Assembly (NCBI GenBank): GCA_907165135.1 | Contig: OU015570.1 | Span: forward strand, 930,001 to 994,000 | Source: Oikopleura dioica | Taxonomy: Eukaryota; Animalia; Chordata | Reading direction: 5' to 3' | DNA length: 64,000 bases | In this document: piece after piece, positions 7,621 to 42,721 of the stretch | Layout: each line of letters starts with the position of its first letter | Position numbering within the stretch: the first letter of the stretch is position 1 | Position numbers and translations under genes: made by a program | The notes under the pieces: model-generated | Told to the model about the DNA's origin: nothing | The model's input: only the letters and a program-made list of their open reading frames with translations | Databases searched by the model: none

Positions 7621-7655
7621 ACCTTCATTTTTCTTTATCTTCGGGCGCTCGAGAT

Positions 7656-8303: not shown

Positions 8304-10412
8304 GGAAGTATGCAATTAGGCTGGGTACGGAAGTTTATTCCTCCGAAATTTGTTATGCCCAGAATCGAAATTTTGTGTGGTTAAAATGATTTTTATTTTT
8401 GAAATCTAGTTTGCTACGGGCTTAAATGCGCTCCGCGCCTGATTTACAGAGAAACTCATTTTTGAAAGTGGGTAATTTTCTCTACCTTCGCGCCTCCTTT
8501 TTCCTAGAAAATCTATAACATTTTATTTCAGACTTCAAAACAACCGTACCCAGACTAATTGCAACCGGAAAGGATCGGACTCATTACCAAAATTTTTGGT
8601 AACCCATTACCAATTTTCGGTAGTCGATTATCAATTTATTTTTACTTTTTCGCCAAGTTAATGAATAAAACACCCCACAAGTATTCTATTACACAGGCGC
8701 GGAGCGCACATTCGCTCTGTGAATGAAAAAATCGGCACTTTTTTGACGAATTTGGTAATGCATTACCAAAATTGGTAATGGGTTACCACAATTGGTAATG
8801 GGTAGGGTAAATCACTAATATTTGAGCTCTTATTTGGACTTTGTAGAAGAGGCATACAGTGAAACCCCAACTTAAGGCCCAGCAACTTAAGGCCACTTTT
8901 TTGAAAAACCCCAAAATCTGTCATCCGAAAAAATCCAACTTAAGGCCACTTTTTTCCATTTTTATTCACAGTAAGTAAATCGCAGGAAAACAGGCGAGAA
9001 ATGGGAAAGATAAGATATTTTTCGTAAAAATTTTCAGTTGGGGTTTCACTGTATAATACCTTTTATAATCCTCAGAAGCGGTTGACGGCGGGAGTGAGTC
9101 TTTGTAAAGACTGAGTCTTCGCGCAAAGACTCAGTCTTTTCTTCGGGCAGTGAGTCTTTTTAGAAAAATAAAAGACTGAGTCTTTTCGAGCAATTGTTTA
9201 CGTCTCTAGAAAAAAATTTGTTATCTCTTCTGAATCATTTCTATTCATCAGTTCCTTATTTAACATGAAGGAATAACCTAAAAGTCAGTGAAAATGACAT
9301 TTCAAACCATTTTCTGACCGATTGTGCGCTCCGCGCTTGTCTTAGAGAAAATTCATTGATAAAACGGGTTATACGTTTACCGCTTCGACTATATTTTCAA
9401 GTTGAAAAAGTTTCTAGAGCAAAGACTCACTCCCGCCGATACCGCGCGGTGACGGCGGGAATGAGTCTTTACAAAAAGACTCAATCTTTACAAAGACTCA
9501 CTCCCGCCGTCACCCTCAGAAGCTGAGGTTCATTTTGACTACTGATAGTGGGGGTCATCTCGTACCCTGAGGGCTTTTGGTACCCCGGAAGTCCTAAAAT
9601 GTTGCCAACTTCGGAAATTTGAATTTTGAGCCGTAACTAAGCTTTTAGACGGAACTATCTATACTAGCATGTAGCTCGGGCTCTGACGGTCATTTTGAGG
9701 GGTAAAAGTATGTCCCGGGCTACTCTAGAAAGTGGTGGAGGTGGTGCAAAGCTGGGGTCAAGACCGGAAGTCCAGCTAAAATAAACTCTTATGGTATGTG
9801 ATTTAAATACAGTAACACTTTAAAAAAGCAACTGTAAATACATAATTGGTCATCAGAGGTCAACTTGGGGTCAAGTTGGGGGTGTATTTTTATTAAAGAC
9901 TTATTTTTTTAATCTTGACCTTAGATGACCCCGAGTGACCCCAAGTTGACCTCAGGTGACCAATTATGTATTTACAGTTGCTTTTAAAGTGTTACTGTAT
10001 TTAAATCACATAAGAGTTCATTTTAGCTGGACTTCCGGTCTTGACCCAAGCTTTGCACCACTTCCACCACTTTCTAGAGTGGCCCGGGACAAACTTTTAC
10101 CCTCAAAATGACCGTCAGAACCTGAGCTACAAGCTGGTATAGATAGTTCCGTCTAAAAGCTTAGTTACGGCCTCAAAATTCGAATTTCCGAAGTTGGCCA
10201 CATTTTGGGACTTCCAGGGTACCAAAATGCCCTCAGTGTACGAGATGACCCCCACTATCAGTAGTGAAAATGATCCTTAGCTTCTGGGGATTATAAAAAT
10301 GTATTAAATGCCCACTCTACTAAGCAAGAAAAAAGTGGAGAATATTAGTGATTTACCCTAGTAATGGGTATCAATTGGTAATGAGTCCGACCGTTTCCAA
10401 TTGCAACCTTCC
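8304..10412. mobile_element. nested MITE stack: GGAAG-type MITE > GGAAA-type MITE (~8567-10398) > hAT foldback (8803-10360) > pogo MITE (8857-9051) and GG-type MITE (9079-9514)
   Basis: TSDs: GTAATGGG (8795-8802/10361-10368), TA (8855-56/9052-53), CTCAGAAG (9071-78/9515-22). Long palindrome ~9523-9880 vs ~9940-10290. Confidence 0.8.
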
Positions 10413-11605: not shown

Positions 11606-12245
11606 ATGATTTCAAAAAAACTGTTTGTGGGGCCGGAAATCTTAAAAACTTCAAGTGCAGTTTTCTTCAGCTCGTCAAAACGAGTCGAATGATGGGTCTA
11701 ACTCCTGATAATTCTAAGGATTGACCGGTTTACCGGCTTGTTAACGGAAAATACGTTGTCACCGGCTGTTTTTGTTCTAGAAGTGATAGACTAATGTTTG
11801 ACACCGGAAATTGTTCCTTAAAGTCAGTTCTTTTGCAGGCTTAAAGATAAAGGTTTTATCAATACTTCGAAGAGAGTTATCACTAAAATACTATTTTTGG
11901 CGAAAATGGGACTAGAAATAAGAAACAGGCAGCAACAACAAAATTTTAGTTAAAATTACTGTTTATAGTGATAACTCTCTTCAGAGTATTGACAAACTCT
12001 TCATATTTTAGCCTGCAGGAGAACTGACTATAAAAAACAATTTCCGGGGTCAAACATCAGTCTATCACTTCTAGAACAAAAACGGCCGGTGACAACGTAT
12101 TTTCCGGTAACCAGCCGGTTAACCGGTCAATCCTTAGAATTATCAGGAGTTAGACCCATCATTCCACTCGTCTTGACGAGCTGAATTAACTGCACTAGCA
12201 GTATTTTTACGATTTCCGGCCCCACAAAAGTTTTTTGAAATCATC
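11606..12245. repeat. foldback MITE with ~280-bp inverted arms
   Basis: GATGATTTCAAAAAAACTGTTTGTGGGGCCGGAAAT ... ATTTCCGGCCCCACAAAAGTTTTTTGAAATCATC. Confidence 0.8.
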
Positions 12246-15828: not shown

Positions 15829-16941
15829 TACTTCTATTCGATAAACCGGAAAATATCTGGATTTGAACCACATACCAAAATCTTCGCTTGATTGTATGTT
15901 AATTCCTGCAAGAAATTTTTCAAAAATTGACATCAAAATTTTTTTCGATTTTTTGTCCCTATTGAAATTTGTTGATTAACAAAATGGTGAATTCGATAAT
16001 CTTCTCCGAAATTTTCTTTGTGAGTTTTAAAAGGGCGTATGATGTCTTCAGTTGAGCGAGGGTTTGCATTTGTATACGAAAACTGTGTTTGTTAACGTAT
16101 AAAAATCGAAGCATACTCGTGAGACAATGATTATGAAGTCTACAACTTATCTCAGAAAGAATCAGACTTGTATAAAAGGATTTTTCACTCTAGTTTAATC
16201 TCATGGTGGTACCAATCCTTTCGTGACGGCCACGAGTAGAAAATACTACACAACTTCGATAAATTCTTCGAATGCAAACGTCTCTTTTGGAAATATCTGA
16301 AAAACTATCTGTAGGAATGATCAAACAACACTGGTAAGATAGACACAATAAGTTTGAACAAACATGGCAAGAAGTTCTCGAATACAGTTAAAACTCAAAA
16401 TTTGCCTTCTCCAAATTTGGCGGGTATTGGTTTAAATTGAGGTATTTTTGAATCTGAAAAAGACTCAAAAATTGGCCGCTTTTTCAAAAATAAAAAATTT
16501 TGCATCAAAATTGCGCCCAAATAATGCTATACCTGAGCATATTTGGCATTTTAAAAGTGTTTTAATTATCAAAAATGACTTAATTCTAATAATAATAACC
16601 TCAAAGAAGCAAAAATTTTATACAAATTCATCGAAACGTGAAAATCATGCCAATTTTCCAAAATTTCGAAAATTTGTTTCTTTGAAGGGGACTCTTGGCT
16701 ATCCCGTAAAAAACTCAAAATTTGGCAGCTTGTAGTAGCTAACCCTCGGGTGTGGCGCTCTTCGGGAGCTGACTCTATTTTTATCACTTGAATTCTGATC
16801 AGAGCTCTCTCGGATCAGGACCTCAGTCCAACTAACAACCTGTTTCTGAAAACACCATCTCAAAATAAATCAACTTTTATAAAACAACTCTAGAGACTCA
16901 TCATTTAGCAGACACATCTATTTAGCAGGTTACAACACAAA

Positions 16942-16959
16942 TGGTGTCAGAAGTGGGAT
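16942..16959 (+). promoter_or_regulatory. primer-binding site, tRNA-Leu
   Basis: TGGTGTCAGAAGTGGGAT immediately after the 5' LTR, complementary to the 3' end of animal tRNA-Leu(CAA). Confidence 0.85.
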
Positions 16960-17000
16960 AAGATATTTTCCCAGCGCCAAACCTTAGAGAATATCCACAA

Positions 17001-19235
17001 GTGAGTACAGAGATGAGATTTTTCTACTCATTAACAGATTTAGATACAGTCCTAGTCGACGCTCTTGCGATTCTAGAGAATCTTGCAGAGCTTGACCAAA
17101 AGGCAAAATATGAATTTTTAAGGAGTAAGTATGAAGATAAAAAAGGACTCACAAAAGTGCCTCTGCGCTTCCCAACATCCAATTTTCAGTCAATAGTAAA
17201 TTTTTACTCGTTAGATATTTCTAGACTAGTTGTAGCACCTAAGGATAAAGCACCTAAAGACAGATGCTATTTACTTCATTCTCCAAGTACTCTTACTGAT
17301 GTAACAAAATTGATTGATGACCTAAGTAAATTAGATAAAAAAATACTAGAAGGACTACAAACTCAGAAATTAGGAGACAAGCATGTTATCCTTGAGAGGA
17401 GTATAGAGGACTTCATTAAGAGAGTAGAGGAAAACATTGATGAACAAAAGCAAAAGTTATTTGTCTCTGGCTCGGCGATGAAAGTCGAAGATGTCATTAA
17501 TGAGTTTGAAGAACGTGAGCGTCTGGTTTTCAATGAAGCGTATGAAAAGGCGGCTAAAGAGTTCTCGGAGAAAACGATCATTATGGAGAAACAAGTAAGA
17601 GATCTAAAAGACACCATCGATGAGCAAGAGAATGAAATTGCGGACCTTCGTTATAATGCCGGGCTTAATGAGCAGAAGATAAGACGTCTTACCAACGAAC
17701 TTGATGCTATGAGGCACAAAGCAACGACATTTGAGCGACTTCACAAGGAAAAGTCAAAAAGAAGCCTCTCACCCAAGAAGATACTCAACAACATCTTTCC
17801 TCGGACAAACCAGGTCGCACCATTAATTCTTGATGAGCCGGTACCACATCAAAAGAAAGATGCTCTCCAGCCGTCTCCGGCGGTAGTAAACCTTGAAACA
17901 TCAGGAGATAAAGCTAATAACACGAAGCCACCTGCAGACCGTAAAAATACCAAAGACGATACGGCGGCACCTGGTCATAAACTTGAGAATGTTGACGGAC
18001 ATAGGGGCGACGGCCAAGCAATGAACTCAGTTCGTAAAGAGACTCGAAAGGAAGAGACAGAAAAACTAGAAGAAGACAATTCGGTTGCTAAGACCGAGAG
18101 AATGAGCCAAGAGCAGATAGAAAGACTGCAGCATCAAGTGGAGCGAATGACGCTTCTCTTTGAACTGCAACAACAGCAGCGAGACCAGGAACTGAACAGG
18201 GAGCGAAATCGTCCAAATGAACGAGCGCGACTGCGAGCTGAAGAACCTCGATATAAAGTTGGAAGGGATCAAGGGCTGAAGGCGACCGTCAAGGCGCCAG
18301 TTTGAGCTAAGTCTTCTGATGCGAGCCAAAAAGCAAGTCATCTCAATGACTTTATAGATTCGTTGATACTCTTTCGTGAACTCTCTTTGCTCTCAGACGC
18401 GTTACTGATCTACAGTTCGCTCGAAAACTCGGGTCGAATGGACATTTTGCGTAAATTGACAAATGAGCAGAAACGAAGTCTCCCGGAATTCATTGATCAT
18501 TTGCGACGGGCTCATGGAGGATCTTCACTTTCTCATAGAGCAAGTCTTAGCTCTCTAAGACAAGGACCCACTGAATCACCACTAAGCTTTTTCATGAGAG
18601 TGATTCGAGAGTTCTATCTTTCGCGAAAGGTGCTCCCACCATCTCCGTCAGCAATCACTGAGAGAGATAGTCAAGAGGACATTCTGTACCTCTTTACAAA
18701 TGGGCTTAAGAATCAAGCGGTGGCACAACATGTCAAACTTCATGAGAAGACAAGACCATTTGCAGATATTGGAAATCTAGCAAATGAGGCCGAGGAGGCA
18801 ATGCAACCGTTGAAAACGCAAATGAGTGTTGTGCGAACATCTAACAGAAGATATGACAACAACGACCGACGAGATGGGAACCGGAGACGGAGATCGCTGA
18901 AAGATATTGAATGCCATCGATGTGGTTTTAAAGGTCACATTGCCCGAATGTGTACGGCAAATCAGAAAACGGTAGGTCGTCATGAGCGTCGTAAAGAGAG
19001 AGGGCGTAAAGGCACACCCTTTCCGAGTAGTAATAAAAGAGGGCGATCTCAATCACGGTCCTCAGACCGCTCAAGAAGCAGCAGTCACACACGCTCAAGA
19101 AGCAGAGATTCCTCAAGGCGAAATTCAAGAGATTCTTCGAGAGGCAGATCAAATTCAAGAGAATCACGTTACAGATCAAACCCCAGCTCGAGACAATCTT
19201 CTCGAAACTCAAGTAGAGAAGGGAGACGTTATTAA
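17001..19235 (+). pseudogene. gag: Gag of element A (one in-frame TGA at 18303-18305)
   Basis: Both ORF pieces are in the same frame. Coiled-coil N-half, LRQGPTES major-homology-like motif, CHRCGFKGHIARMC zinc knuckle, RS-rich tail. Start codon uncertain (first ATG at 17013). Confidence 0.85.
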
Positions 19236-19328
19236 CCGTGCTTATTAATAAGATAACAAAAAAAAAAAAAACCGCATCCTTTCCTGTAAATTTTAACAAA
19301 TAATACAACTAACCAAAACCTTAAAATT

Positions 19329-22300
19329 ATGACCCTCACAGATGTTCCTGCCTTCATGGCGGAAGCCTACTGTCTTGACAGCAGTGGCAACCACCAGGGA
19401 GGCATGGTTTATTCAGAAGTCTTGCTTGATACGGGTGCAATGCTTGGAGCTATTGACTCACGGCACCCTTTTGCAGAATATGGCGTACGACATTATAGAA
19501 CAATTGACATTTCGGCGTTCACAGATAAACTTATATCACAAGAAGAAATCATAACGGTAGACATTAAAATCGTGGATGGTAGAACCAAAGACGCACTTGT
19601 ATCATCAGTGACACTTTTGGTATTAGATATCTTTGCTAGAGAAATAATTCTTCCATACTCAGTTATTTCGAATTTCGATCTAAAATTTGGTCCCAGATGG
19701 TGTTATCTCTATAACAAAATTTCGGAAAAGAGTCATGCTCTGAGGCTGCTCACAGCTGACACTGTGGAAATCTCGACACAGATTTGTTTAGAACCACAAG
19801 CGCAGCAAGAGCTGGATAACACTGGTATTCCAATTGAAACCAATGGCAGAGTTCAAATGGCATTTCTCGGAAAATATAAAGATAGAACGGACCTCCCAGT
19901 AATCTCTCATCGAGAGAAATCGATGATCATCAATGACTCAACGGAAGTGCTAAAAATACCGGCAGGGACAAAGCTCTGCCTAATACGACCAACGTTGCAA
20001 GAGGAACGCTTGCTTGAAGACGTTGAAGAATTTCGAAATAGACCACACCTACGTTAATATCAAAACCTTGATCCAAAGGATGTTAAAGTAAAACTAGACC
20101 ATCTCAATGGCCGGCTTAAATGCATTACTGAAGAATTCGTAGAAGAATTCCATTATATATTTGCTAGAAATGACAAAGACATTGGTCCAGGATTCCGTTT
20201 AGGATATCCCTATAAAATAAACAAAACTACTTCGCAGCCTCAACCGAGGAAGTACATTCCAGTCGCCCATAAATACGAAGATTTTCTCCAAAATCACATC
20301 AATTCACTTGAAGATCAACGAGTAGTTGAACAGATACCCAATTTGGATGTCATCACGGCGTCTTGGGTCATAGTTCCAAAGGGCAATGATAAATTACGAC
20401 CTTGTTTGGACCTCCGTCCACTAAATAATATAACCATTGCGGATAAAAATTTTCCCCTACCACCACTGCAGAGCATTCTACAGGAGCTCTCGGGACACAG
20501 ATATTACAGTTCATTAGACCTTTCATCGGCCTTTCATCACTTCGTTTTGCACCCAGATGACAGGCATCACTACACATTTCTGTCGCCTCAGCGACAAGCC
20601 TACCAGTATCGTCGAATTCCGTTTGGCGGTAGGCTTATCACCTCGTTCTTACAGTCACTCATCACGAGTGTGCTGGCGGAAAACGAGAAAAACATATGCT
20701 GCTATGTAGATGACATATCAATTTATGCCGACACAGTTGAAGAGCACAACGACGTCCTCAGACGGTTCTTTAACAAGCTTGGTGATGCCAATCTTGTCCT
20801 TAACCCATCAAAGACAATTCTTCTCAAAGAAAAACTAGAAATATTTGGCTACACGGTGGATCGAAACGGCTACAAGCCGTCAAAGGCAAGAATTGACAAA
20901 CTTTTGACACTCTCCATACCGGAATCGTCCACTGCAATGCGCAAGGCGATCGCGACGTTTGCATATTTTCGCCCAACTTTCATGAAATTTGCGGAAGTGG
21001 CGCGACAACTGTTTGAATGGGCGCAACCTGGTTCATAATATAATCCGAAATCGAAAGAGGCAAAAGAAGCGTGGGATGCACTCCTCAGATGCACAGCGAA
21101 CAGCGTTTTGCTTACAAAACCAGATCTCAATCAGCGTTTCACACTTCGATCGGATGCCTCAACTTATGCTTATGGAAGCGTTCTGTCTGAACAGATTGAT
21201 GGACAAGAAAGGATTATTGCTGTGGACAGTCGTCAATTCACAAAAGGTCAAAGGTCCTGGTCGATTCCGACGAAAGAGTTGTGGTCAGCGTTCTCAGCCG
21301 TTCGCTTTAACGCTAACCTGCTCACAGGGAGACGATTTACTTTGATAACGGACAATCAGTCCGTAGTTCATGTTATACGAGGAGCAAGGAACCTGGAAAT
21401 AACAACTTCAAACCCAATTGCTAGATCAATCATCTACTTAAATATGTTTGAAATAGATGTTAAGTGGTCTAAGGGAACTGATGCAGATTTTCACCTTACT
21501 GACTTGCTCTCAAGAAATAAGATTCATCTTAACTCCCCAGTTAGATTAGGAACTAAGTCAAAAGAGCCAATTCTACAAGTAAAAGATATCTATGATACCT
21601 GGATTAGTGTAGACCCCCAAGATAAAGAAAAGGTGACAGATGTGGCAAGGAGGGACTACCGACAAGAATCATCAACCAGTACTGTAATAACAACAATGAA
21701 CGTGACTATTCCGGAGGCTCAGATTAAAGTAGCAGAGCTACAAAAGAAAATCAAGAAATCACAGCATGATTGCAAGTAAACACAAAAACGGATAAGGAAG
21801 CTTTTGAATAATGAAAAGGTGCCTGGGTTTAATACAAAGATGGACCCGGAGATTGGACGCAATATCTTATTCAAAGGAGATCAAATTGTTGTGCCAAATC
21901 ACGAAGTTTGTAGCCTGATTGCACAATTACATAATCATACAACAAACAGGGCCATTTTACAACAGATGGAATTGCTCAATCTGTGGTTTGAGAACATGAC
22001 GCGTACTATCACCGAGTTTGGACTTTCCTGTGAAATCTGCACCCGTCGGAAAGCGGTGGCTCGTCATCCAGTTAAAATTGGTCAAACGATAAACCTGGTA
22101 ACTGAACCTTTCCAGCGTTGCCACTTGGACAATCTTGTTTGCAAACCCTACTACATCATGGTCGTGAGAGATCATTTCTCTGGGTACACTGACATGGCCG
22201 CCCTACATTCTGAAAAACTTGGAGACACATTGGAGACAGTGACTAAATTAATGCTCAGAATGTCGCTACCGAAGGAAGTGGTTTGTGATAATGCAAAAAC

Positions 22301-22868
22301 GTTCAAAAGTGAACAATTCGTGGATATGATGACCAACTTGGGGATTGCTCTGACAAACATAAGTCCGAAAAACTCAAGAAGCAATGGGAAAGTCGAACGG
22401 ATCAATCGGACTATCGGCGAAAGACTTGCGACTCTGACAGGGAATAATACGTTACCGTTACTCATGACGCTATCAGAACTGGACACGATATGTGCTCTTA
22501 TCGCGTTTGAGGTTAAACGAGCAAGGGAGCGATGGTCAAGTGAGACTTATAGGATTGTGAGACTTCATCCAGAACAAAATTCACTCACGATACAGAAGGA
22601 AAACGACACGGGTGATAAACGGTTGCGGGCACCAAGATCGACCGTGGCAATCGACAGAGTAAGAAGAATAACTGACGAAAATGAATTGCGAGAGGAGAAG
22701 TCGCGTGATAAAATATCAGAAGTAAATGAAGACGAAACAGCCGAAGTGAACAAAAAGGGGGCGCCAAGGAAAAGAGTGACATTCAAAGACATCGATGAGA
22801 GAGCAAAGGCTCCGGTGAGGTATAATTTGAGAAGCAAAAGCCGGTCTGATCAGCCGACTAAGAAATAA
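19329..22868 (+). pseudogene. pol: Pol of element A (three in-frame TAA at 20055, 21036, 21777)
   Basis: Protease LLDTGA, RT LRPCLDLRPLN and YVDD, RNase H SDAS..KEL..TDNQ, integrase HHCC plus CDNAKTF and SNGKVER. All pieces are in one frame. Confidence 0.9.
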
Positions 22869-23154
22869 CTTTGACGAAAGTTCATACCACCGTAAAAGAC
22901 ACCGGCTTGTAAACATAAAAGGAAAACGCACTTCAAAGTAATTCATTACATAAAATTAATTTTAATTATAACCTGTCGTAAAAATGAGATCAAAGACCTT
23001 GATGTCAAAATAACTCTGATGGTTATGGTCTTGGTCAAAGCATACACGTACCGCCTGTTACCGGTACCACGCCCATCATTAAAACTTATCATATAAAGAT
23101 CTCTTCAAACAAACTAAGCTCACTTCCACTCATGAGACGTCAAACAAAACTAAA

Positions 23155-24975
23155 ATGTTTCTTTTTCAAACCGCTCAAGAGAAACCCCTCCAAAGACAAA
23201 TGGAAGAGCCAGAACTCGTTACACCAACGAGCGTGAATACAACGAGAAACCAATTGTACTCCCCAACAAACATTAAGACAAAGATAATCGCACCTTTAGG
23301 TTTAGCCCTTGTTCAAGAACCCCAAAATACTACCTTACTAATAGAAAACTACCAGCCAGTGAAAATAGATCTTTCGTTTGAACTTCCTATTTTGGAATAA
23401 ATGTTTGCTCACTGTGATGCTGAAATGCTAGAAACCATAAAAACTAAAATTGATAGCGATGAAAATTTTAAAGAGGTCTCCAAACAGGCCCTAGCTCTTC
23501 GACAGCAATTCCTAGCGGAGATTAAGAAAGAAAGTGGATATTCAAGAAAAAGGAGAACAACACAAAAAACGGTGATCTCAATCATGCCAACAAAACCTTC
23601 TAGTGAAACTGACAACAAACTAAGATGGACACCTCACCCGAATGATGTAATATTAACAAGCTGGACTCCTCCACCAACTATAGATAATAAAAATTATCGT
23701 GTTATTGAAATGACAGCACCGTCAATTCGCTCGACAGAGCCGCCGGAAGATAACAAGCTTAGATGGAGTCCGACGACTAAAAGGGCAACCACAACGACAA
23801 CAGAGGCGCGCGTAGTGACAACAAAACCATCGACCACAACAAGAATGACAACCACGAAATACACTACAAAGCGTACGACCGTAAAATCGGAAAATCGATC
23901 AAGAAAGCAGCCCAGAACATCAAAGACAACAACTACAACAAGACGCCCAAAGACAACGAAGCGGCAAAACAAAACAAGGCGAACAACAACGACGACAAAC
24001 CGCCCAAAAACGACAAAACGAGCGGAGCCCACCACGACTGAACATAGAGAAAGGGTACTTCCAACAGTAGGCTATTTTCCGGACAAAAATGCAAGGTATC
24101 ATCGAGGTACGTGCATTAAGGACAACTCTCCAGTTGACTCCTACTCGCTTGGCGAGGTTGTTGATTGCACTGCTGAAGACTATGAATGCTGTAGTCAATA
24201 CACCTGTAAGTATAGGCTTCAAGTTGAGCATATAAAAGACTTGCTAACATATATGGCAGAAAATGGGCGAGGCGACCTTCTATATACAGCTCAACACTTT
24301 TGTTTTGGCTCTCCAGCCTATTCAAGAAGGAAAAGATCAATGTCTATTTTTCAGTATTGGTCGCATGGGGGAGCTCTCTCCCCCTCCAGTATCAATACAG
24401 AGGTGAAGAACCTCCGGGAAATGGAGGATGAGAAAATAAGCAAGTTGGCGAAACAAATGGTCACCTCAAGTGACTTGACAACTTCGATTAAAAGTGAAGA
24501 TGCTAAAATAGGGAAGACGATCGATGTGATTCCTCCAAATTCACCGACAATATTAACTACTCCCTGTACATTTATAACATGCTCAGGAGTACCTTTTGAC
24601 GTCCCAGAAGAGTCCAGAAATATTTAACTCAATATAGTTCAGGACTTAGAGGTACACTTGCAGGATGTTCCACTCTTGGAAACGGATTTACATCTGCTTC
24701 AGAAGAGAATTTCCTCTCTGGCAGTTAAACAGGAACAAGATCACCGAAACCAAGTAAACAAAACTTCAACTCTTATTACGTCCATTTTGAACATCGAGCC
24801 TAAACATGAGGGAACGGCTCGGATAGTTTTTAAATACTTACTACTATTTGCCATCTTAATCTTAGGATACATCTTCCTGAGATGCATATGGAACTCGTTT
24901 CAAAAATGTAAGAAAACAACTCAAACAACAATTGCTAATTTCAGAACCAATCAGATGAGAGACACGTCTGTGTAG
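23155..24975 (+). pseudogene. env: env-like membrane glycoprotein of element A (in-frame stops at 23398 and 24625)
   Basis: Two furin-type sites (SRKRR, RRKR), Thr-rich mucin-like stretch, Cys cluster, heptad region after RRKR, C-terminal TM segment YLLLFAILILGYIFL, located after pol. No clear signal peptide, probably deleted or decayed. Confidence 0.75.
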
Positions 24976-26001
24976 AATATTCAGATAAAAATCCCCAGCT
25001 TGCTTTTAGGGTAAACTGCTTATAATTATTTTTTTTTAATGAACGCACCTTCATATTCATCAATTATAATTATCACAGAATGTTTATTAATTTTCACTAA
25101 AATGAGTGACGCGAAAACTATAAAATGCTTCTAGACCAAAGTTGAACCCATAACTGGAGTAACGATATTTGATTATTTCTTTAAATGCTAATGAAATGCT
25201 GCTTTAAGTAACACGAGAAATCAAGGATGAAAACAAGGCTTAAAAATAATAAAAAAATATATATACAATTATGTGCTTATCATTACTATTATCTATGCTG
25301 CTTGCCGTAGAAAAAGAAAAGAAAAAAAAATTAAAAATATAAATATTAAGATAAAATAAAAAGATACGAGAAATAAAAAAAAATATGAAAAAAACCTGTA
25401 CATAATGTATAATTTAAACTCTGTTTTTACCTGCTTGTCAAGATTATCATCGTTTTGATAACCTGTATATACTGTATATAGTAATCTAACTTAATTCTTT
25501 AAATCATTATCATAATCATAAGCTGGTGCAGAAGGATTTTATTGAATCCACAGCAAAGCTGAATTTCTTCAATTTCCACAAAGTTCAATTGTAACATGAA
25601 AACAGTTCAAAGCAAATTATTTTTCACGGCCAATTGTACATTCCTATTTTCACTGCCAATTGTAAATTATTAATTTTCACTGCCACTTGCCGACATCAAA
25701 GATCATTTTCTTTCCGTCGTAAAACTTAATTATCTTCTTTTATGTTAAAATAATTTCCCTTGATTTATACATGAAAGCATTCTTCAATTTACAACCAGCT
25801 TTGCCACTGCCAATATTTTTATGTAAAAACTCATCAAAATCAAAAGATAGGCCAATAAGGGCCTCACCCCTCGTAAAATGTGCCACTTCAAAAAAAAAAT
25901 ACCACGATGTCACATCAGTTGCTCTCAACTAAATAAAAAGAAAAGAGTGAAAAACAGAAAAGGGACCTCTGTCCCGAGAAACGAAAAAAAGAGAGTCAAG
26001 G

Positions 26002-26838
26002 ATGTATGAAGATGCAGTAAACACTCTTTTTTACCAGGAAAGGAGTTTAGCGACCCACCCAAACCTGGCAAGATGGATTTCGGGACCTGGCTTCTCAATT
26101 GCAGTATTCCTAGGAAGAGTTGCGGAGAGATTCAACTTAGCAGTACCGACAATACAGCCCCAAGCGGTCAACAGATTTGTTAAGAAAACAATGCTATTTT
26201 TGCATCCTGATAAGAACCTAGAAGTGAACGAGGAACAGAGCGAACTACGGACCCGGTTGCTTTGCGTTAAAGGGCTAGTCACGGACAATTTCGAAATCAT
26301 TTCGAAAATTGAGCGCGATCTGGAAGAGAAACGAAGAAGACTACAAGAACGAAAGAGGATGAAGGAACAAAGAGAACGCGAAAAAGCCGTAAAACAAGCG
26401 CAAGAAGAAAAGCGAAGAAAGGAAGAGCAAGACAGACTTGAAAAGGAAAAGCGGGAGCGGGAAAAACGACAGGCACAGGCAAAGGCCGAAGAAGAAGAGC
26501 GTAAAAGGAAAGAAGAAGAAGATCGTAAAAGAAAGGAAGAAGAAGATCGTAAAAGAAAGGAAGAAGACGATCGTAAAAGGAAACGAGAAGAAGAAGAAGA
26601 AGAACGTAGACGAAAGGATACTCGTAAACGAGAAGAAGATGGGTCAGAACGCGAAGGTAATAAAAATAATTATGGTCAGGAACGGAACGAATGGAACGGA
26701 AGCACAGAAGGAATGGAATGGGACTCGAACACAAATGAACAATGGAACAACAGACGACGCTATGAGTGGCAAAATATGAGAACGTCACGGGAACAGGAGG
26801 CATTAAGAAGAATTCGGGATTTTAGAAGAACCATTTAA
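26002..26838 (+). CDS. accessory ORF4 of element A: J-domain-like HPDK protein with a charged single-helix region; probably extends through two stops to 27240
   Basis: FVKKTMLFLHPDKN (HPDK at 26203-26214) followed by a helix and E/R/K repeats (EEEDRKRK). The same frame continues to 27240 with only two TAA. Confidence 0.65.
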   Translation: MYEDAVNTLFYQERSLATHPNLARWISGPGFSIAVFLGRVAERFNLAVPTIQPQAVNRFVKKTMLFLHPDKNLEVNEEQSELRTRLLCVKGLVTDNFEIISKIERDLEEKRRRLQERKRMKEQREREKAVKQAQEEKRRKEEQDRLEKEKREREKRQAQAKAEEEERKRKEEEDRKRKEEEDRKRKEEDDRKRKREEEEEERRRKDTRKREEDGSEREGNKNNYGQERNEWNGSTEGMEWDSNTNEQWNNRRRYEWQNMRTSREQEALRRIRDFRRTI

Positions 26839-27596
26839 GTCCCGCCCACATCTTCGATAGGACCACTCTTGGCCTTGGAACACTGTGAGTCTTTGATGGA
26901 ACAGCTTCCTCAAGAATATACAGTTGTGTACGAAAGTGAACTTTTCTTGGTCGTCCTAAAACAAAGACTCCAAATCCAGAAAAGATGTTTCGTCAAAACG
27001 CTTCTTCGGAACAAATAAACATTAAGGAGTATTGGGAACGTTGAAACTCTGGAACTTGGTCGGCTTGGCCCGATCAATGTGGCGAATGTAAAACTGAACG
27101 ATGGCAGAACTTTTCCAATGATTCAAAATATTTTTACACTCCCGAGTTATCTTTCGTCAAGGCGCATCTCAATGCAGCCGTGGACCCAACAAATTTACAA
27201 TCTTGGAAGCGAACAGTTGTACGATATCGTAGAAGACTGAAGGAACAAAAACGAACAACATGAATTCAGATAGATGACCCTTTTTGATTTAAGACCCTAT
27301 TCATTTTTTTTTCTCTGTACACTAACCTTTATTCTATTATTACTGTTTGAATGTACTAACCATATACCACTTTCTGAACCTGTGTACATTCCCCCCCCCC
27401 GGAGCCCCGAGTGTAGTAGCTAACCCTCGGGTGTGGCGCTTTTCGGGAGCTGACTCTATTTTTATCACTTGAATTCTGATCAGAGCTCTCTCGGATCAGG
27501 ACCTCAGTCCAACTAACAACCTGTTTCTGAAAACACCATCTCAAAATAAATCAACTTTTATAAAACAACTCTAGAGACTCATCATTTAGCAGACAC

Positions 27597-27903
27597 GGAA
27601 GTATGCAATTAGTCTGGCACGCCTTGTTTTGAAGTCTCAAAAACACGTTCTAGAGATTTTTCGCAAAATTCCTTAGAAATTTCTAATGGCCAGAACTCAA
27701 CTTTATTTCGGGAAAAATAATTTTTTCTTCTGAACTAAGCATCCTTGGGCCTAGGATGCGCTCCGCGCCTGATTTTATAGAGAAATTCATTTGGGAAAGT
27801 GGCCAACTTTCTCTACCTTCGCGCCTCTATTTTCCTTAAAAAATCTCTAGAACATGTTTTTTAGACTTCAAAACAAGGCGTGCCAGACTAATTGCAACCC
27901 TCC
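27597..27903. mobile_element. GG-ended MITE inserted in the 3' LTR of element A
   Basis: 8-bp TSD GCAGACAC (27589-96/27904-11), ~40-bp TIRs. Related to the MITE at 8304. Confidence 0.9.
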
Positions 27904-28966
27904 GCAGACACATCTATTCAGCATGTTACAACAAGCTTTTTCCTCGAATTCGGATCTGAAAACCGGCCAATTTTTGAGTTTTCACTGTACTTCCTCACTC
28001 CAAAAGTTAACTATGATCTTACACCAGTGGAAGACTCGCCAGTACAAGACTCTGGATTGGAAGACTCTTCAACTTCAAGCTCACCGAATGATGTGACTAT
28101 GAAAAATTCATGTATGGTTGCTTCGAATCATAAAATACTCTCGCGCAATACTCAAAGATTGAAAATCAAACATCACAAGGGACAATGAATGGAAATATGG
28201 AGATGAATAGGTATGGAATTGACTCGGCTACCTCTGAAAAACCAGACGCACCGATTCCTTATCATTAACAACCACCATCAGAAAGCTTCATAAATAACGA
28301 TTTACCCAATGACGATGATGTCCTGTCGCTACTCCCGATTTCTCACCCTTACCTTACTCTCGAACCAAATCAAGTGTTCATGGATTGGCTTCTGAGCGTT
28401 GAAAATGATCCCAATCGAGGTTGACCCACACAACTCTTCAACGACCTCGGCCAACAGGATAATCCAACCCAGAACTAATTCTTCAATAAAAGGGGAAAGG
28501 ATAATGTAAATTCTATACTTGATAGGTCGGAAATGCCTTCTAATTCACGAGGTCTTGCCCTGCTTCTCTACTGTAGAATAGCTCTAGATAAACGACACGG
28601 AAAAGTGGTAGTTAGTTTTGTTGTGTATTCAAGGTTGGTAGAATACGGACTGAAGCAGTGCAGAATGGAAAGTGGCGCCTCGATCCTTATCAGATCTAAC
28701 GGCTAACTTCTCGACCTAACAGCCCTCTAAATCTTCTAGCGTAGTGACGGTGGTTGATTTCTCAGGAAAGAAGTAGAGTTGAGATGATAGATCAAAAGCA
28801 GTCGAGTTGAAAAAGGAGAGTCGCGCAGCAGTCCAGAAGGGAAAACGACGCGGCAGAAGGGAAAGCAGCAGCGGCGGTCCAATAGCAGAGCAGTCCAGTG
28901 GGTGAGAACTTTTACCCAGAAAGTCGAGCGAAGAATCCGATGAGTCAATCATCGCGCGTCGGCCAA

Positions 28967-31900
28967 TCAGCGATCAGCAGCGTAAGTTTTCTTCTTCGGA
29001 TCGAGAGACAACTTTTCTGGCTTCTTTTTCTGTCTCTTGCTTTTCCTCATTTGACGCAATTCTAATTTAGAGAAGAGGTCAACGAGTCGAGGATCGGGCG
29101 AAACTGTCGTCGAAGCTGGAGCTAGAGAACTTGACGAAGAATCGATCGCCGGAAGAGCAGGTAGAGAAGTCGAAGCTGCAGAACTTGGGTTTGATGAAGA
29201 AGTTGTCGATGGTGGTTGAGTTCTTCGTAGTTTTGAGGTAAGTCCAAGAGATTTCCGCGAACTTCCAGAAGTTAAATTTTCCTTAGCCGGCCTCCCAACT
29301 TTTGGAAGCGCGTCAGGAGCTACAGGATAACTTCCAGATGCATTCTCCGGTCGATTTTCTGGCGAGATGAGCGGATCAGCTGAAGTTTCAAGAAGATCGA
29401 GCTCGCGCATCAGCTCAGAATTTCGAAGATGCACAAATCGCTCAGGTACGTAGCGTAGATGTGCCCTGTGTACCCAGTCAACACTATTTTTGTCGTTGTT
29501 ACACCTGATTTTTACGACCTTTTCAGATGCAGTGATGACTGTGAACGGGCCAATCCAGTCGTAACCGTTGGTCTTTGCGGCTTTGGAGACAGGTCGGTAC
29601 AGAGTCACCTGGTCTCCTTTGCGAAGTGGGCGCGCGCGATGAGCCTTGTCCAGCTTCTTCTCCATTTCAAGATCAGCGCTCTTGTTGGCGATCTTGGCGA
29701 CATCGTTGAGAAATTCCAAGCGCTCACGGACGATGGAGCCGTACTTGGAAGGCGAATCGGCGCTGACATCTCTGTCGTGGATGGTGGCCTGAATTGTAAG
29801 ACGTGATCGGCGACCAGTTACCAGCGTGTGTGGAGCCTGACCAGTGCTGCTGTTCTTGTGGCTGTTCATAAATGCCACGGCGTATGGAGCAGCGTCAATC
29901 CAGTTCATGTGCCGCTCGTGCTCGAGCATGAAAATCATCGACTTGAAAGTGCGGTGCTGTCGTTCGAGATTTCCTGTACCTTGGGGTCGAAAAGCGGTAT
30001 GCTTCTCCGCCACGATTCCTAGCTGCTTGTAAAGTTCTCCCATGGTCGCAGAAATGAATGCAGTTCCACGATCAGAAGATACGATACTGGGAATAACGTG
30101 ATGTCGAAGCACTACTTCTTCTACTATCGTCCTGGCAGCGTCGATTGCCCTCTCGCCCGGAACAGGCTTGGCAATGAAGAACTTGGTGAAGCTGTCAAGG
30201 ATCGTGCAGCAGAATTTCTTGCCATTGACCTTGTCGAAGACGGTGAAATCGATAAAGATCACCTGAAATGGCCGCTCGCCGCGTCTGCAGTGACCAATAT
30301 TCGGCGACGACGGATGACCTTGATTTCCCTTTTTCTTGGCACAAATCAAGCATGATGCGACGTAGTTGCGAATGTCCTCTTCCATCGCTGGCCACCAGTA
30401 TGATTGCAGCGAATCGGCAACCCGACTACCTGGATGAGCACAATCGTCATGAGAATTTCAAAGAAGACGGATCGCGTGCTCTGGCGATAGAACTTGGCGA
30501 TATTTGCCGTCTTTGACGTGAAGAAGAAGATCAGTTCGTTTGCAGATCCGGAAGTAGGGCCAATTCACTCGGAACACATCGTAATTGTGGTCATTCCGGT
30601 CGAGTCGAATTGAGGTTGGATCTTTCTGGAACTTGCCAAGAGCTGAAATAAGGGGCCCGATGCTTGAATCTGCGCGCTGATCGGACGCGAGTTGGAGATA
30701 GCCCTTTGCTGCATCGGTGAGGATGAATTCGTCCTTGCTGGCGATCAAAGCTCTGGTGATCCCTTCACGAAGGAGGTTTTTCGATGTACCTACTGGCGCT
30801 GGCACCTGATCCTTCATAGACCAAGATGGAATGTAGGCACGTAGACCATTCTCGAAGTCTACAAATTTTCCGGCTGGAGTGTGAATGTCCGAATGCACAG
30901 GCTTCTTGATGCCAAATGGACGACTGTACATATCTGCCCAAACATTCTGCTCGCCGGGGATGTATTCAACACAAAAGCGGTAGCTGGAGAGCTCGTCCAT
31001 CCAACGGCTCAGCTTGGCGTTTTTGTGGTCGACGCTGTCGATATACTGCAAGGCGGCGTGATCACATTTGACCACGAAAGGCCGGCCACGGAGGAAATAG
31101 TCGAATCGCCGAACGCCAAAAAGGATCCCGTAGGCCTCCCTCTCAGTCGTGCTCCAACGGGTTTCTACTGCAGTGAGGGTCCTGGAAGCAACACCGACGA
31201 TCTTGTCCTTTCCATCTACGAGCTGCATCAGCACAGCTCCAACTGCAACTTCCGAAGCGTCAGTGACGAGTAGAAAATCGCGAGTTGGGTCAGGATATGA
31301 GATCATGGGACTGGACTTGAGCCGTTTCTTCACTCGCTCAAATGCAGCTTGGGCTTCAGGCGGCCAGTAGAAATCGCCGTCACGATTCAGCTTGTTCAAC
31401 TCGTGGACTAGCTGGCTGAAACAACTAGTGTCGATTCGCTCATACAAGCGCGTCTCCAGAAATTCGCGGATGAACGTCAATCGACCGAGCAGTGTACGCA
31501 GTTCTGATCTTGATGTTGGTGGTGCAAGGAGTCGACTCCTGAGGCGTGATCTGGATCGACGCTCATTCCTTCTGGGCTCAAGACACGCCCGAGAAACTTG
31601 CAGGATTTCGCCAGGAAATTGCACTTGCCGGGATGAAGTCGAAGTCCGAACTGCCTCGATGCTTCAAACAGGCTTCGAAGTCGCTGTACATACGCGCCAA
31701 AGGTAGGAGTCGCTATGAGAACATCATCTATGTAAACATAGATGCCGTCGCGGTTGGTGATGGTCTCCAGAGCTTCTCCGACACATCTGCTGAAGATTTG
31801 ACCTGCACAAGACAGGCCAAATGGCAATCGCGTATATTGCCAGGTCTTCCCTCTCCAGGTAAAAGCCGTCTTGTGCCTGTCGCGCTTGTCGATCGGGATC

Positions 31901-34272
31901 TGCCAGTAGCCTGAGCGGTAATCCACGGACGCCATGTACATCATCCCTGGGCGGACTTCGTTGAAGATTTCGCGCAGGTTTGGCATCGTGTACGGGTCAG
32001 GATCCTTCAACACCAAATTTAAGGTGTTCTTAAAGTTGGCGACAACTCTGGGGCTTCCATCCTTCTTTTCCACGCAGTGGAGTGGTGTATTGAAGCCTTG
32101 TGGATTCTTGCATGGCTCGATGGCGGTGATACGTTCCATTCGATCGACTTCAGCATCGACCGCTTGTTGGTTCTTGTACTGGATCTGGTGTTGCTTGCGG
32201 CAGGCGGACTTTCCAGTTGTCGGGATGCGTACCGGCTTGCAAAACTCGCCGAGGGGCTCGTTATCACCACCAAAGACGTCATCGAACTCAACCATCAGCA
32301 GCGCGGTGGTTCGAAGTTCTTCAGCATTTTGGTGATCCCTGGGGAGCTTCAGATTCTTTTTCGTCTCAAGCCAATCAAGAAGTTCAGTTGTGCTCGCGTT
32401 TTTATCAGGTTTGTCACGACTTGACGGTTGTACAGTACTTACAGTACTATTTCTAGGGCTGGAACTCGTCTGCTCGACTGATGGGCTGCTTTTGGCATCA
32501 CCAGCGGAGTTGTGAGCACCGGAGCTCATTACCTCAATCATGTGCCGAGCTGGTCGACTGCTGAGGTGAGCTTTTGTAGTTTCTTGCGCCACATTCCAAG
32601 GGTCGCTGTGGTAACCGTTGATCTTGAACTTTTCAGTGAAGATCGGGTCACCAGGGGCAAGGCGGCGTTGGACGATGATTTCTGTACCCGTCCGTCCAAA
32701 AGAGACATTTGAGGGATGATCGATCACAGTGCGTCCGATGAGAGCAGGAGTGGCTTCATGGTCTGTGACGATGACCCTGATGTTCTTGAAGATAGCGCCG
32801 TCGATGTCCACTGCAGAGACGAACTGCCCTAAAGCCTGTCTGGCTCCGTTCACTCCGTTGATGGTGTAGTCGCAGTCATCCAAGTTATCCAGAAGATCAG
32901 CCGGGATGAGCCGCTTCGGAATCAGAAGGTCGTCTGATCCGTTGTCGATGATACCATCTTTGACCGCAAAAGTTGACCCACCGAGCGTGAGCTTGAAGTT
33001 TACGAACCAAGGAAGTGATGGGCGGTGGAAGCTGGAGTGTGCGCAAAGCCGAAAATGGTTGGACTGGGGAGCAAGAGATGCTGGAGCTTCATCAGTTTCG
33101 GCTGCTCGAGCATTGGTGGTCTTGTTCTTTCGTCCATGCTTCTTTTTGTTCTTGGAATCAGCGTCGTCGGATTTCGGAGCTGGATTCTTGCCTTGGAGAT
33201 TGGAGAGACGATCACAAATGGACTGTAAGGTGGACTCGAGCGACGGCTTTTTCTTCTCGGCTTGACCTTCTTTGGAACTTTTCTTGTTCCAAGTGCCGTT
33301 TTTGACACCGAAGGCGGCTGCGTCTTCGCTGGTCATATTGGAAGGAAGGCGGTCGATCAGGAGTTTCGCCTTGTTGTAGACATCTTGTGCCGTTCTACAA
33401 TCGTCGATTTGGTCGCAGAGCTTGAGTGCGATAGCAGGAAACAACTCGGAGATCTTCAGGTAAGCCAGACATGCAGCAGTCAAGTCTGAAAACTCGTGCG
33501 CCTTCACAGCACATTTACAGACGTAGTTTTCAGGTCGCTTCAAGCCAGCTTCTGTCTTAACAGCGCTGTCGGTACTCGTGGTGTAGTCGGCTGTGGCTTC
33601 ATCGATGATGGTTACATCATGCTTGGCAACTCGAAGCTTCAATAGCTCAACCTGGCGGAAAGCTTGTCGCTGTGCCTCGGTAAGTTCGCTGATGTAAGCC
33701 TGAAGGCCCTTGCTTTTAGTGTACTTGACATCATGAGTACGTTTCAGGTGCTGGAAGATACTGCGCTTCGAAGAGAACATCGATTCCATGGCCTCCACAA
33801 GCTGCTCGACGGTGGTCAGCGGAAGATTCTGTCGACTGAAGGACTGGCGGACTTCGTTGGAGAAGTACTTTCGCGCAGTTCTAGCGAGGAGAGCTTCAGC
33901 TTCCGGCTGCTGAGTCTTGGAGAGATGGTCCACGAAATCGGCCTTGGCTTGGCGGATCTTACGAATCCAGACCTCAACCTCATCGGCGTCGGAGAGATCC
34001 GTTTCCTTCTCAAGCTCGAAGGCCTGTCGTATTTCGACAAGATGACTGGGAGTGATGCTGGGTGTGGTCGACTTCACGGGCGCTTTGCCAAGTTGGGCAA
34101 CCATGAGCTTCTGCTGGGACGCGGCTAGCTGAACATTGTCCTTCTGTTCAGAGACGTTCAGGTTAGTCACCACGAAATCCATTAGAGTGGTACTCCATTT
34201 TTGTAGGTTGGCGCGGCTTGCCGTTTCGATGTCGTCGGCGGGCATGTGCAAAAGATGCGTCGGCGGCGCCAT
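28967..34272 (-). pseudogene. Gag-Pol polyprotein of element B, with two frameshifts (~31520, ~30430-30460)
   Basis: ATG at 34272. Protease IIDNGS, RT YIDD, RNase H TDASE..EREA..CDH, integrase HHCC, SDRG, GNLER and WIGPF. Confidence 0.9.
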
Positions 34273-34446
34273 CTTCACGGGTGAAGTTGCGGTTTCCAAG
34301 AACTGTGAGTTCGGTTGGGCGGGAGAGCGTTGCGATCGCGCGGAGGAGATTGCTCGAACGGCTTCGATCGAATGGCGGCGGCTGTAACGGACAATCGTCG
34401 ATTTGGCGCTGAAAGTTCAAACCGAGTCGACTGTAAGTTGGCGGTT

Positions 34447-34712
34447 GTACCTGCGTTGACCCCAGATTTAAGTTTCTGGAATTAACTTAAATCCTGTCTA
34501 GGGGTGTTTGATGAGCAATGCAGGTCAACGATCCAGAGAGCGTCACAAGTCGTCGAATTCAAGAGCTGGGCCGATGAAGATGCAAGCTGCGTGCTTAACT
34601 TTGGCGGCAGAATCGGAGAGAGAACGAAGTGTACCTGCGGTGACCCCGAGTTATAAGCTTGGTGAGCTATATAACTGCTTTTAGGGGTTTTTGATGAGCA
34701 AATTCAGGTCAC
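34447..34712 (-). ncRNA. two copies (34447-34528, 34631-34712) of a structured RNA motif in the leader of element B
   Basis: Conserved ACCUG/CAGGU and ACCCC/GGGGU stems and a conserved GCUCAUCAAA linker. The inner hairpin differs in sequence but pairs in both copies. Confidence 0.6.
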
Positions 34713-36222
34713 TTGCAGCTGAAGTTCAACGATCTGCGGCGGCGGAAGAAGCACCAGAAGATTCGGCGGTCCAAGAAGTCAAGAATTCTCCCTAGGTCGC
34801 GTGTGGTCGAGTGGTTTGCCAGGCGATGAGGTCGTGTTACTTATCTGGAAGATGAGTAGTTCGTAGTTGTAGTTGTAGAAGCAAATTGAGCGCTCGCACG
34901 TCACCAGTTGATAGGTCGGAAATGTCTTCTAATTCACGAGGTCTTGCCCTGCTTCTCTACTGTAGAATAGCTCTAGATAAACGACACGGAAAAGTGGTAG
35001 TTAGTTTTGTTGTGTATTCAAGGTTGGTAGAATACGGACTGAAGCAGTGCAGAATGGAAAGTGGCGCCTCGATCCTTATCAGATCTAACGGCTAACTTCT
35101 CGACCTAACAATACTCTTTCAAAATTACTACTCACTGCGACTGCTGGAAGGACTCACCCCACTTTTGATCTGAAAAAGATCGTAAGGCGCCAAAGAGCCC
35201 ACATCACACCCTCTAAAACTGCGCGCCGCAAGGCATTTACCACAACTCTATTATACCCTGTCGTCAAACACAAGCTCTAAAAAAATTTATCTCTTTTTTC
35301 CATGAGATACATACCGTGTCATTATTTGTTCGCATACTCAGAGATAGAGAGAATAAAACCCCTATGAGAATGAAAATAAAATCGTTTAAAAAAATCAGGA
35401 ACCGCTTCCCTTCTTTGAGCGTACTTAAGGTTCCATAAAATGCGAAAAAAATTTTTCGCTCGTCTACTTAACTCGCTCAGCCAAATTTGAACCCTGAGCT
35501 CATGTCATGTACGACAGAGAGTTTAAAAACTGATAGACAAAAGAGAGTTTTTCTGTGCCAAAAAGCCTTTTTAAAAAAAGTAAGTATTCTAACTTCCAAA
35601 TTCTATTGTAAAATTTAGTACCTAAGATTGTCGCTGAAGTCTTCATTCCAAAAAAGTCCGGAGCGGAGCGGAAATCGCTCCGCTCACTCCGCTCGCTCCG
35701 CTCCGCGAAATTTTCAACCCTGGCTGAAGACCAAAAGCTTAATTATCAACAAACTTCAAAAATGAATTATTGAAAAGAATAAAATTCGCCGTCACCCACA
35801 TTGTCCTTCTCTTATCAGCATTTTTATGCGCAGTTTCTGCCATTAAACACCTCAATTTTGGCTTGTATTGCATATCAAGAAAATCAAGCTCTTCTAATCG
35901 TTGTTTATGTGTTCGCTGCCTCTGAAGAAATCCTCTGCATAATGCTTGAATTTTAACTGCTGCTTCATCTTTAGAATCTTTAGGGGTAATAATATTCCAT
36001 GATTATAAAAGTCATATGAATCATATTAATATCAAAATTAATGTATTAATTTATTAAAAAACCAAACAATTGCCCACCAAAAAATCGGCCGTTTTTGAGT
36101 AAACCCGACTTTTTTGGAAACTTTAATAAACCCGAAATTGGCCGCTATTTCAAAAATGAAAAAATTTTTCAGCAGAATTTGACCCAAATAATGCTACTTC
36201 TTATCATTTTTTGATTTTCAAC

Positions 36223-41522: not shown

Positions 41523-42721
41523 CAGGGATGGAAATATGACAGAATTTTCCGGCGGCACCGGCACGGCACGGCACAACCAAAATACCCGTGCCGCGGCACG
41601 GTACGGCACGGCACGGCACAAAATTTGATAATGGGGTGCCGCGGCACCACGGCACGGCACAGCACGAATTTGAAGCATATAACTTATTTATGAAGACGAA
41701 AAAATAAAAGCTGCTAGTGTAATTATAGAATTTTCGAAAGTTTAAATGAAAACCATAATAAAATCAAAATCTTGGATAGTTTTAATTTTTCAAACAATGG
41801 GTGAGGGTGGGGTTGGGGACGTTACTGAGATAGCAATGTTCCAAGCCAATGTCAAGCCCCTTAAATTCAAAAATCAAGGAACGGGGCTGAAACGGCCCTT
41901 CGGGCCGTCAAGCCCCTTAAATTCAAAAATCAAGGAACGGGGCTGAAACGGCCCTTCGGGCCGTCAAGCCCTTAAATTCAAAAATCAAGGAACGGGGCTG
42001 AAACGGCCCTTCGGGCCGTCAAGCCCCTTAAATTCAAAAATCAAGGAACGGGGCTGAAACGGCCCTTCGGGCCGTCAAGCCCCTTAAATTCAAAAATCAA
42101 GGAACGGGGCTGAAACGGCCCTTCGGGCCGTCAAGCCCTTAAATTCAAAAATCAAGGAACGGGGCTGAAACGGCCCTTCGGGCCGTCAAGCCCCTTAAAT
42201 TCAAAAATCAAGGAACGGGGCTGAAACGGCCCTTCGGGCCGTCAAGCCCTTAAATTCAAAAATCAAGGAACGGGGCTGAAACGGCCCTTCGGGCCGTCAA
42301 GCCCCTTAAATTCAAAAATCAAGGAACGGGGCTGAAACGGCCCTTCGGGCCGTCAAGCCCCTTAAATTCAAAATCAAGGAACGGCTGAAACGGCCCTTCG
42401 GGCCGTCAAACCCCTTAAATTCAAAAATCAAGGAACGGGGCTGAAACGGCCCTTCGGGCCGTCAAGCCCTTAAATTCAAAATCAAGGAACGGGGCTGAAA
42501 CGGCCCTTCGGGCCGTCAAGCCCCTTAAATTCAAAATCAAGGAACGGGGCTGAAACGGCCCTTCGGGCCGTCAAGCCCTTAAATTCAAAAATCAAGGAAC
42601 GGGGCTGTGCCCCGGTGCCGCAACCAGATTTTATTCTCCGGCACGGCACGGTACGGCACGTGCCGTGCCGTGCCATGCCGCTGTGCCGTGCCGTGCCGTG
42701 CCGCTCAGATTTCCATCCCTG
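41523..42721. mobile_element. hAT (Ac-like TIR) non-autonomous element carrying a tandem array
   Basis: TIR CAGGGATGGAAAT, 8-bp TSD CAATAGAG (41515-22/42722-29), subterminal CGGCA pentamers. Confidence 0.9.
41852..42607 (+). repeat. ~13 tandem copies of a 56-bp unit with an ACGGCCC-TTC-GGGCCGT hairpin
   Basis: Unit GCCCCTTAAATTCAAAAATCAAGGAACGGGGCTGAAACGGCCCTTCGGGCCGTCAA; no variable spacers. Confidence 0.95.

Follow-up and report, generated by a model that had tools for sequence, protein, structure and literature searches.

A fourth reading frame with a J-domain-like HPDK motif in an env-bearing Ty3/gypsy retrotransposon of Oikopleura dioica

Organisation of the element and its surroundings

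The window analysed here (the whole stretch of 64,000 nucleotides, positions 930,001 to 994,000 of Oikopleura dioica contig OU015570.1) has a GC content of 40.5% and contains three Ty3/gypsy elements together with many short repeats; assemblies of this species are described in the available part of PMC8008620 as 64-70 Mb in size, with 40-41% GC and with Tor elements dominant. The element of interest lies on the forward strand at 16731-27933 and was delimited by its LTR ends, Pfam domains and reading frames, comprising gag, pol, an env-like frame and a fourth frame referred to as ORF4. LTR comparison placed the 207-bp 5' LTR at 16731-16937 and the 3' LTR in two pieces at 27412-27596 and 27912-27933, both on the forward strand, with three differences between the members of this 207-bp pair. 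The hallmarks of LTR retrotransposons are present, namely TG...CA LTR ends, a 4-bp target duplication flanking the element (16727-16730 and 27934-27937) and a primer-binding-site-like stretch that starts with TGG (16942-16959, forward strand). The 3' LTR is split at 27597-27911 by a 307-bp insert (no strand assigned) with inverted ends and an 8-bp duplication, a later insertion foreign to the element, which we take to be hAT-like; positions 8443-8566 hold a related piece. Another repeat seems to have been the insertion site of the retrotransposon itself. Directly before the 3' LTR, positions 27385-27411 of this decayed copy hold a C run and no purine tract, and this stretch varies among copies, with contigs of a diverged sister element skipping 79 bases just upstream of the C run.

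All coding frames of the element are on the forward strand. The gag frame (16962-19235) contains a CCHC knuckle (zf-CCHC, E 0.0015) and one internal stop at 18303, and pol (19329-22868) carries a DTG protease motif followed by RT, RNase H and integrase, the order of Ty3/gypsy elements by Pfam, with internal stops at 20055, 21036 and 21777. The spacer of about 100 bases between them (19233-19331) has the same frame on both sides and includes 14 consecutive A as well as three TAA, and pol has its own ATG at 19329. Its closest relative is the metagenome protein P0003 (46% over the RT), which likewise begins at a Met ahead of the protease region; the nearest named relatives are nematode proteins (33%), and no relatives were found in viral or prokaryotic genome contigs. 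The env-like frame (23083-24975; internal stops at 23398 and 24625) contains furin-type sites (RKRR and RRKR), a Thr-rich region and a C-terminal membrane helix (19-residue hydropathy of 2.54 near the end), and the interval 23545-24340 between the two furin-type sites is a long, mucin-like Thr/Arg/Lys-rich stretch. No fusion-protein family was detected in env by Pfam search. With a third frame bearing a furin site and a C-terminal membrane helix, the element belongs to the env-bearing class of Ty3/gypsy elements. An AT-rich gap of 1 kb separates env from ORF4.

The second gypsy element (52322-59812, forward strand) has near-identical LTRs and a CCCH finger in gag. Its gag stop is a TGA with CTA next to it, and the frame is shared with an open pol of 1172 codons, presumably a readthrough-type junction. 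The third frame of this second element (58594-59505, 302 codons), which has no membrane helix, matches no family and runs into the 3' LTR, is another orphan accessory frame and was unrelated to ORF4 by BLASTP. In the third gypsy element (28519-35117, reverse strand), gag and pol are fused, the frame breaks near 31479 after RT, and no extra frame was seen. The window also holds tandem arrays with a 55-56 bp unit at 41747-42646 and 2768-2984, in opposite orientations and with scattered single copies, as well as several long inverted repeats (e.g., 6871-7621 and 11666-12185).

The fourth reading frame and its sister copy

ORF4 (26002-27240, forward strand) begins with an ATG at 26002 and ends with a TGA at 27238-27240, and its 412 codons are broken in the present copy by in-frame TAA at 26836 and 27016 (residues 279 and 339); the initial annotation, which described a frame between env and the 3' LTR running to 27240 through two TAA, was exact in this respect. 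Four parts can be distinguished on the forward strand: a J-domain-like part at about residues 40-98 (26119-26295), with a predicted helix, an HPDK loop and a second predicted helix; an E/R/K charged helix at residues 106-215 (26317-26646); an Asn/Trp/Gly-rich linker (26647-26781) predicted to be partly disordered; and a C-terminal part of about 150 residues (26782-27237), for which no family or homologue was found. The predicted long charged helix, already noticed in the initial annotation, has a matching composition (44% K+R and 38% D+E). The motif lies within KKTMLFLHPDKN (residues 61-72), with HPDK at 26203-26214 and HPD as residues 68-70.

Homologues of ORF4 were sought at several levels. 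Word-indexed searches with residues 1-112 (63 candidates, protein lengths 226-721) and residues 262-412 (32 candidates, protein lengths 30-225) gave no match at E 10 and E 1, respectively, and a search of 1.84 billion representatives returned one match, to a repetitive and unrelated protein, with no J-protein match at E 0.001. Metagenome contigs yielded two 16-residue matches that were judged to be chance, and viral contigs none. A weak NCBIfam match to DtxR (E 0.0045, cut-off 290) was dismissed. In two of the six raw RNA runs, from animals that may or may not carry the element, 3 and 15 reads fell on ORF4, all less than 90% alike and confined to the charged repeat.

A sister element that is about 84% alike provides a view of ORF4 after considerable divergence. 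Its contigs differ from ORF4 at 42 of 271, 35 of about 292, 9 of about 118 and 26 of 155 bases, the alignment begins at 26001 (one base ahead of the ATG), and the gaps among those listed net to 3, 3 and 9 bases, two of the three falling in a triplet-like repeat that is prone to slip in threes and thus representing weaker evidence. The stretch 26900-27148 is of equal length in both. No contig from run X4 other than the sister aligned over codons 60-82, and there 16 base differences result in five silent and seven changed codons. Since this diverged sister keeps the frame, ORF4 is very likely a real gene. The claim of a fourth gene in an env-bearing element was therefore upheld, with another copy lacking both stops, as was the expectation that the frame should be present in a related element.

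J-domain likeness and alternative readings of ORF4

A J-domain is defined, in the available part of PMC13254874, as a helical hairpin of 60-70 residues that carries HPD in its apical loop and stimulates Hsp70 in an HPD-dependent manner. In the proposed Pfam check, DnaJ (PF00226) matched residues 56-77 of ORF4 with 12.2 bits and E 0.2, under the curated cut-off of 27.8 bits. It was the only family match of residues 1-123, and two other cuts of the N-terminal region gave no Pfam family. Among five matches in a PDB search, two were J-domains (ranks 1 and 3, E 0.34 and 0.54), and in the top cluster of an Atlas search (0.91) 13% of 161 members are labelled DnaJ; of every 100 shuffled proteins, 4-10 score as high. 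These weak Pfam, PDB and Atlas matches point to J-domains; all fall within residues 50-88, share a single stretch of 20 residues and do not count as independent evidence. Structure models were of low confidence. In a single-sequence model of the ORF4 fragment, HPD lies in a loop between two helices (mean pLDDT 57.7, pTM 0.36, with pLDDT below 50 across the first half), and the whole-frame model reached a pLDDT of 49.5; Foldseek returned nothing for the fragment model at E 0.001 and VIA-align matched it to long helices only, neither of which weighs for or against a J fold.

We then compared ORF4 with a J profile built from 57 unique J-domains, out of 77 recovered at 80 viral-contig loci (from phages and giant viruses), a narrow set of viral origin without the divergent animal class C domains. 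The score of ORF4 was reached by 2 of 2000 full shuffles, and by 62, 137 and 529 of 2000 when HPD, HPDK or HPDKN, respectively, was held fixed. By region, helix II (the 12 residues before HPD, with HPDKN fixed) was equalled in 266 of 10000 shuffles, being one of three regions compared, and helix I plus loop (4234 of 10000) and helix III (5314 of 10000) were at chance level. The hydrophobic moment of helix II (0.50) lies within the 10th-90th percentile range of true J-domains (0.39-0.56), and it has three K/R versus a median of five; helix III is weakly amphipathic (0.10-0.18 versus 0.29-0.44 in J-domains). The summed score is -5.4, compared with at least 78.6 in every one of the 57 true J-domains, and a score as good is found at 431 of 3638 positions in the other frames of the window. 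The J-domain call rests on HPDK and the preceding helix, and the remaining domain adds nothing measurable. Of the J-domain signature described earlier, the HPD motif is present, and helix II fits beyond the motif, though with fewer basic residues than the median; helices I and III are at chance against this narrow profile.

The sister copy bears on this region as well. HPD was expected to be conserved in sister elements, and no HPD difference is listed for the one sister available; among the differences listed, HPDK as a whole is unchanged. For HPD in one sister this is weak evidence, since the chance that three given codons stay unchanged is about 1/3 (7 of 23 codons change residue; calculated by hand). 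Codons 60-71 show two conservative changes (K to R and F to Y) and three silent ones, none of them in HPDK, whereas four of the five residues directly after HPDK (72-76) are changed; the contrast between 2 of 12 and 4 of 5 changed residues has p ~0.03, calculated by hand and post hoc.

The main alternative is that ORF4 is a real accessory gene of another kind, whose helical domain, charged spacer and orphan C-terminal domain form an adaptor or a nucleic-acid-binding regulator in which HPDK is a chance turn joining two helices. We give this explanation considerable weight, somewhat short of an even share. All evidence for a real gene (the frame kept in the sister and the run X4 contigs) applies to it equally, the motif itself supplies most of the J-profile score while helices I and III are at chance, the motif was picked from a very large scan, and extra frames with coiled coils exist in LTR elements of rotifers according to the available part of PMC5408684. 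On the other hand, a J-profile score as high as that of ORF4 is rare among full shuffles, the window's six frames contain HPD five times and HPD[KR] a single time, the residues preceding HPD resemble a J helix II over and above the motif, and the constraint seen in the sister stops directly after HPDK.

The internal stops invite a second alternative. The present copy has eight (one in gag, three in pol, two in env and two in ORF4), seven of which are TAA versus an expected share of 43-48%, and it might be supposed that these TAA are programmed, ORF4 giving a 278-residue protein with occasional readthrough or with separate downstream frames. In addition, a close copy in run X2 retains both ORF4 stops, and one contig of run X1 shares two of the pol stops, with no copy lacking them among the differences listed. 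However, DNA contigs of run X4 have sense codons at both ORF4 positions, the diverged sister has a sense codon at the first (the second falls in a part too diverged to align), and at the gag stop and the two env stops all covering runs (of four DNA runs) depart from the present copy, the comparison of ORF4 copies covering two of the six DNA sample sets. Moreover, with an expected nonsense share of 5-7% of substitutions, the probability of at least eight stops is 0.02-0.95 over the divergence range allowed by the three LTR differences, which is compatible with ordinary decay, and the related pol of P0003 is a single open frame of 1266 residues. Programmed stops thus appear highly improbable. 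Because run X4 has sense codons at both positions, the two TAA in ORF4 are decay of the present copy that segregates among copies, and the pol stops are probably decay too. An intact 412-residue product is inferred from pieces, no single contig spanning ORF4. Two other explanations of the stops were ruled out: an altered genetic code, since the 1172-codon pol of the neighbouring element has no in-frame TAA, and an intron at the RT/RNase H stop, since the Pfam domains on either side leave no space for it. The three pol stops, all TAA, are each close to a domain junction (protease/RT, RT/RNase H or RNase H/integrase), and three DNA runs have a few extra bases near the start of env.

Finally, that ORF4 is not a working gene and is instead a recently captured or low-complexity stretch left open by chance might explain the missing homologues in protein and metagenome searches and a purine-rich middle repeat that is open in several frames and slips in threes, but it is very improbable given that base shuffles (n = 20000) rarely leave the N and C parts outside the repeat as open as they are (0.055% stop-free for 26002-26337, and 0.235% with no more than one stop for 26839-27237, both regions picked post hoc) and that the 16%-diverged sister keeps frame and length and shows silent changes.

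Proposed role and comparison with known systems

A rare motif in a fitting context has to be set against the missing support from the remaining domain. On balance, we consider it plausible, in an evenly poised judgement, that ORF4 works like a class C J-protein, and its assignment to the J-domain protein family is withheld. ORF4 has no signal or membrane helix (highest hydropathy 1.13), so its product is predicted to be cytosolic or nuclear, and cytosolic or nuclear Hsc70 would hence be the partner. As a conserved extra frame, ORF4 may well, though no more firmly than an even call allows, encode a divergent J-protein-like adaptor that recruits host Hsp70 through the HPD loop. Its layout is that of a class C J-protein, a group in which domains outside the J-domain select the client. 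On this analogy, the N-terminal unit would prompt Hsc70 to hydrolyse ATP, the predicted charged helix, about 110 residues long, would serve as a spacer, and the C-terminal part would hold a client, for which the element's own Gag particle (during assembly or uncoating) would be the likeliest candidate and a host complex the second.

The usual view of Ty3/gypsy elements is that they make passive use of host chaperones. That this lineage carries a working J-domain co-chaperone and directs host Hsc70 at either its own particles or a defence complex of the host is possible, if somewhat doubtful; if true, a retrotransposon would be steering the chaperone machinery as polyomaviruses do. A J-protein here would mean that a retrovirus-like element has gained an accessory gene for sending Hsp70 to a client of its choice, and would offer a direct handle on particle assembly or uncoating. 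Even without J function, the locus would represent a gypsy family with env and four genes, one of them a constrained orphan. Expression might start from an ORF4 promoter in the AT-rich gap, by analogy with Tor3b/4b, whose env is expressed from an internal promoter as described in part of PMC4402516.

Tor elements and "ancient errantiviruses" (PMC4402516 and PMC13524379, both available in part) resemble the present element in their LTR-gag-pol-env layout, a 4-bp target duplication, and an env with furin sites and a C-terminal membrane helix. Further likenesses are LTRs of about 200 bp (189-210 bp in two O. dioica entries; PMC13524379) and, in Tor4b, a gap between pol and env (PMC4402516). In contrast, the available parts of both papers mention no fourth frame after env, the words "dnaj" and "accessory" are absent from the searched text of PMC13524379, the listed O. 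dioica entries have another primer site and are 9.0-9.5 kb long versus ~10.9 kb here, and the env of the present copy contains neither of the F-X-G and N-[L/V]-G patterns of Tor3b/4b.

LTR retrotransposons with extra frames that replace env, precede it or follow it are described in the available parts of PMC6431247 and PMC5408684, so that an extra frame after env is of an already known kind and only J-like content would be new. The initial annotation knew of no such accessory gene in gypsy elements, and in the literature searched (mostly outside subscription journals) we found no J-domain reported in an LTR retrotransposon. Rotifer elements of the ORF3 type (PMC5408684; reviewed in PMC6431247) also carry a captured frame 3' of pol or env, including coiled-coil types; unlike ORF4, the types described in these partly available sources are GDSL esterases, DEDDy exonucleases, coiled-coil and membrane proteins, and "chaperone" is absent from the searched text of both, as is "DnaJ" from that of PMC5408684.

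Complex retroviruses provide a parallel in the position of the extra gene. Foamy viruses have accessory genes between env and the 3' LTR. The same position is described for an accessory gene of DrFV-1 in the available part of PMC2774666, although these viruses belong to another lineage and no sequence link to ORF4 was found.

As for the possible source of such a unit, cellular J-proteins of class C offer candidates. DNAJC8 and DNAJC17 have a charged helix after the J-domain. Their architecture, a J-like unit followed by a long E/K/R helix, resembles that of ORF4 and makes them possible donors, and the searches found no cellular protein match to ORF4, from these or others. J-domain proteins are also known from viruses, such as the polyomavirus T antigens and a phage J-protein (available part of PMC13254874). 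Unlike ORF4, which falls under every threshold tested and belongs to a reverse-transcribing element, these have recognisable J-domains and come from DNA viruses; what ORF4 would have in common with them is that a parasite encodes the HPD unit and couples it, as class C proteins do, to domains of unrelated kinds.
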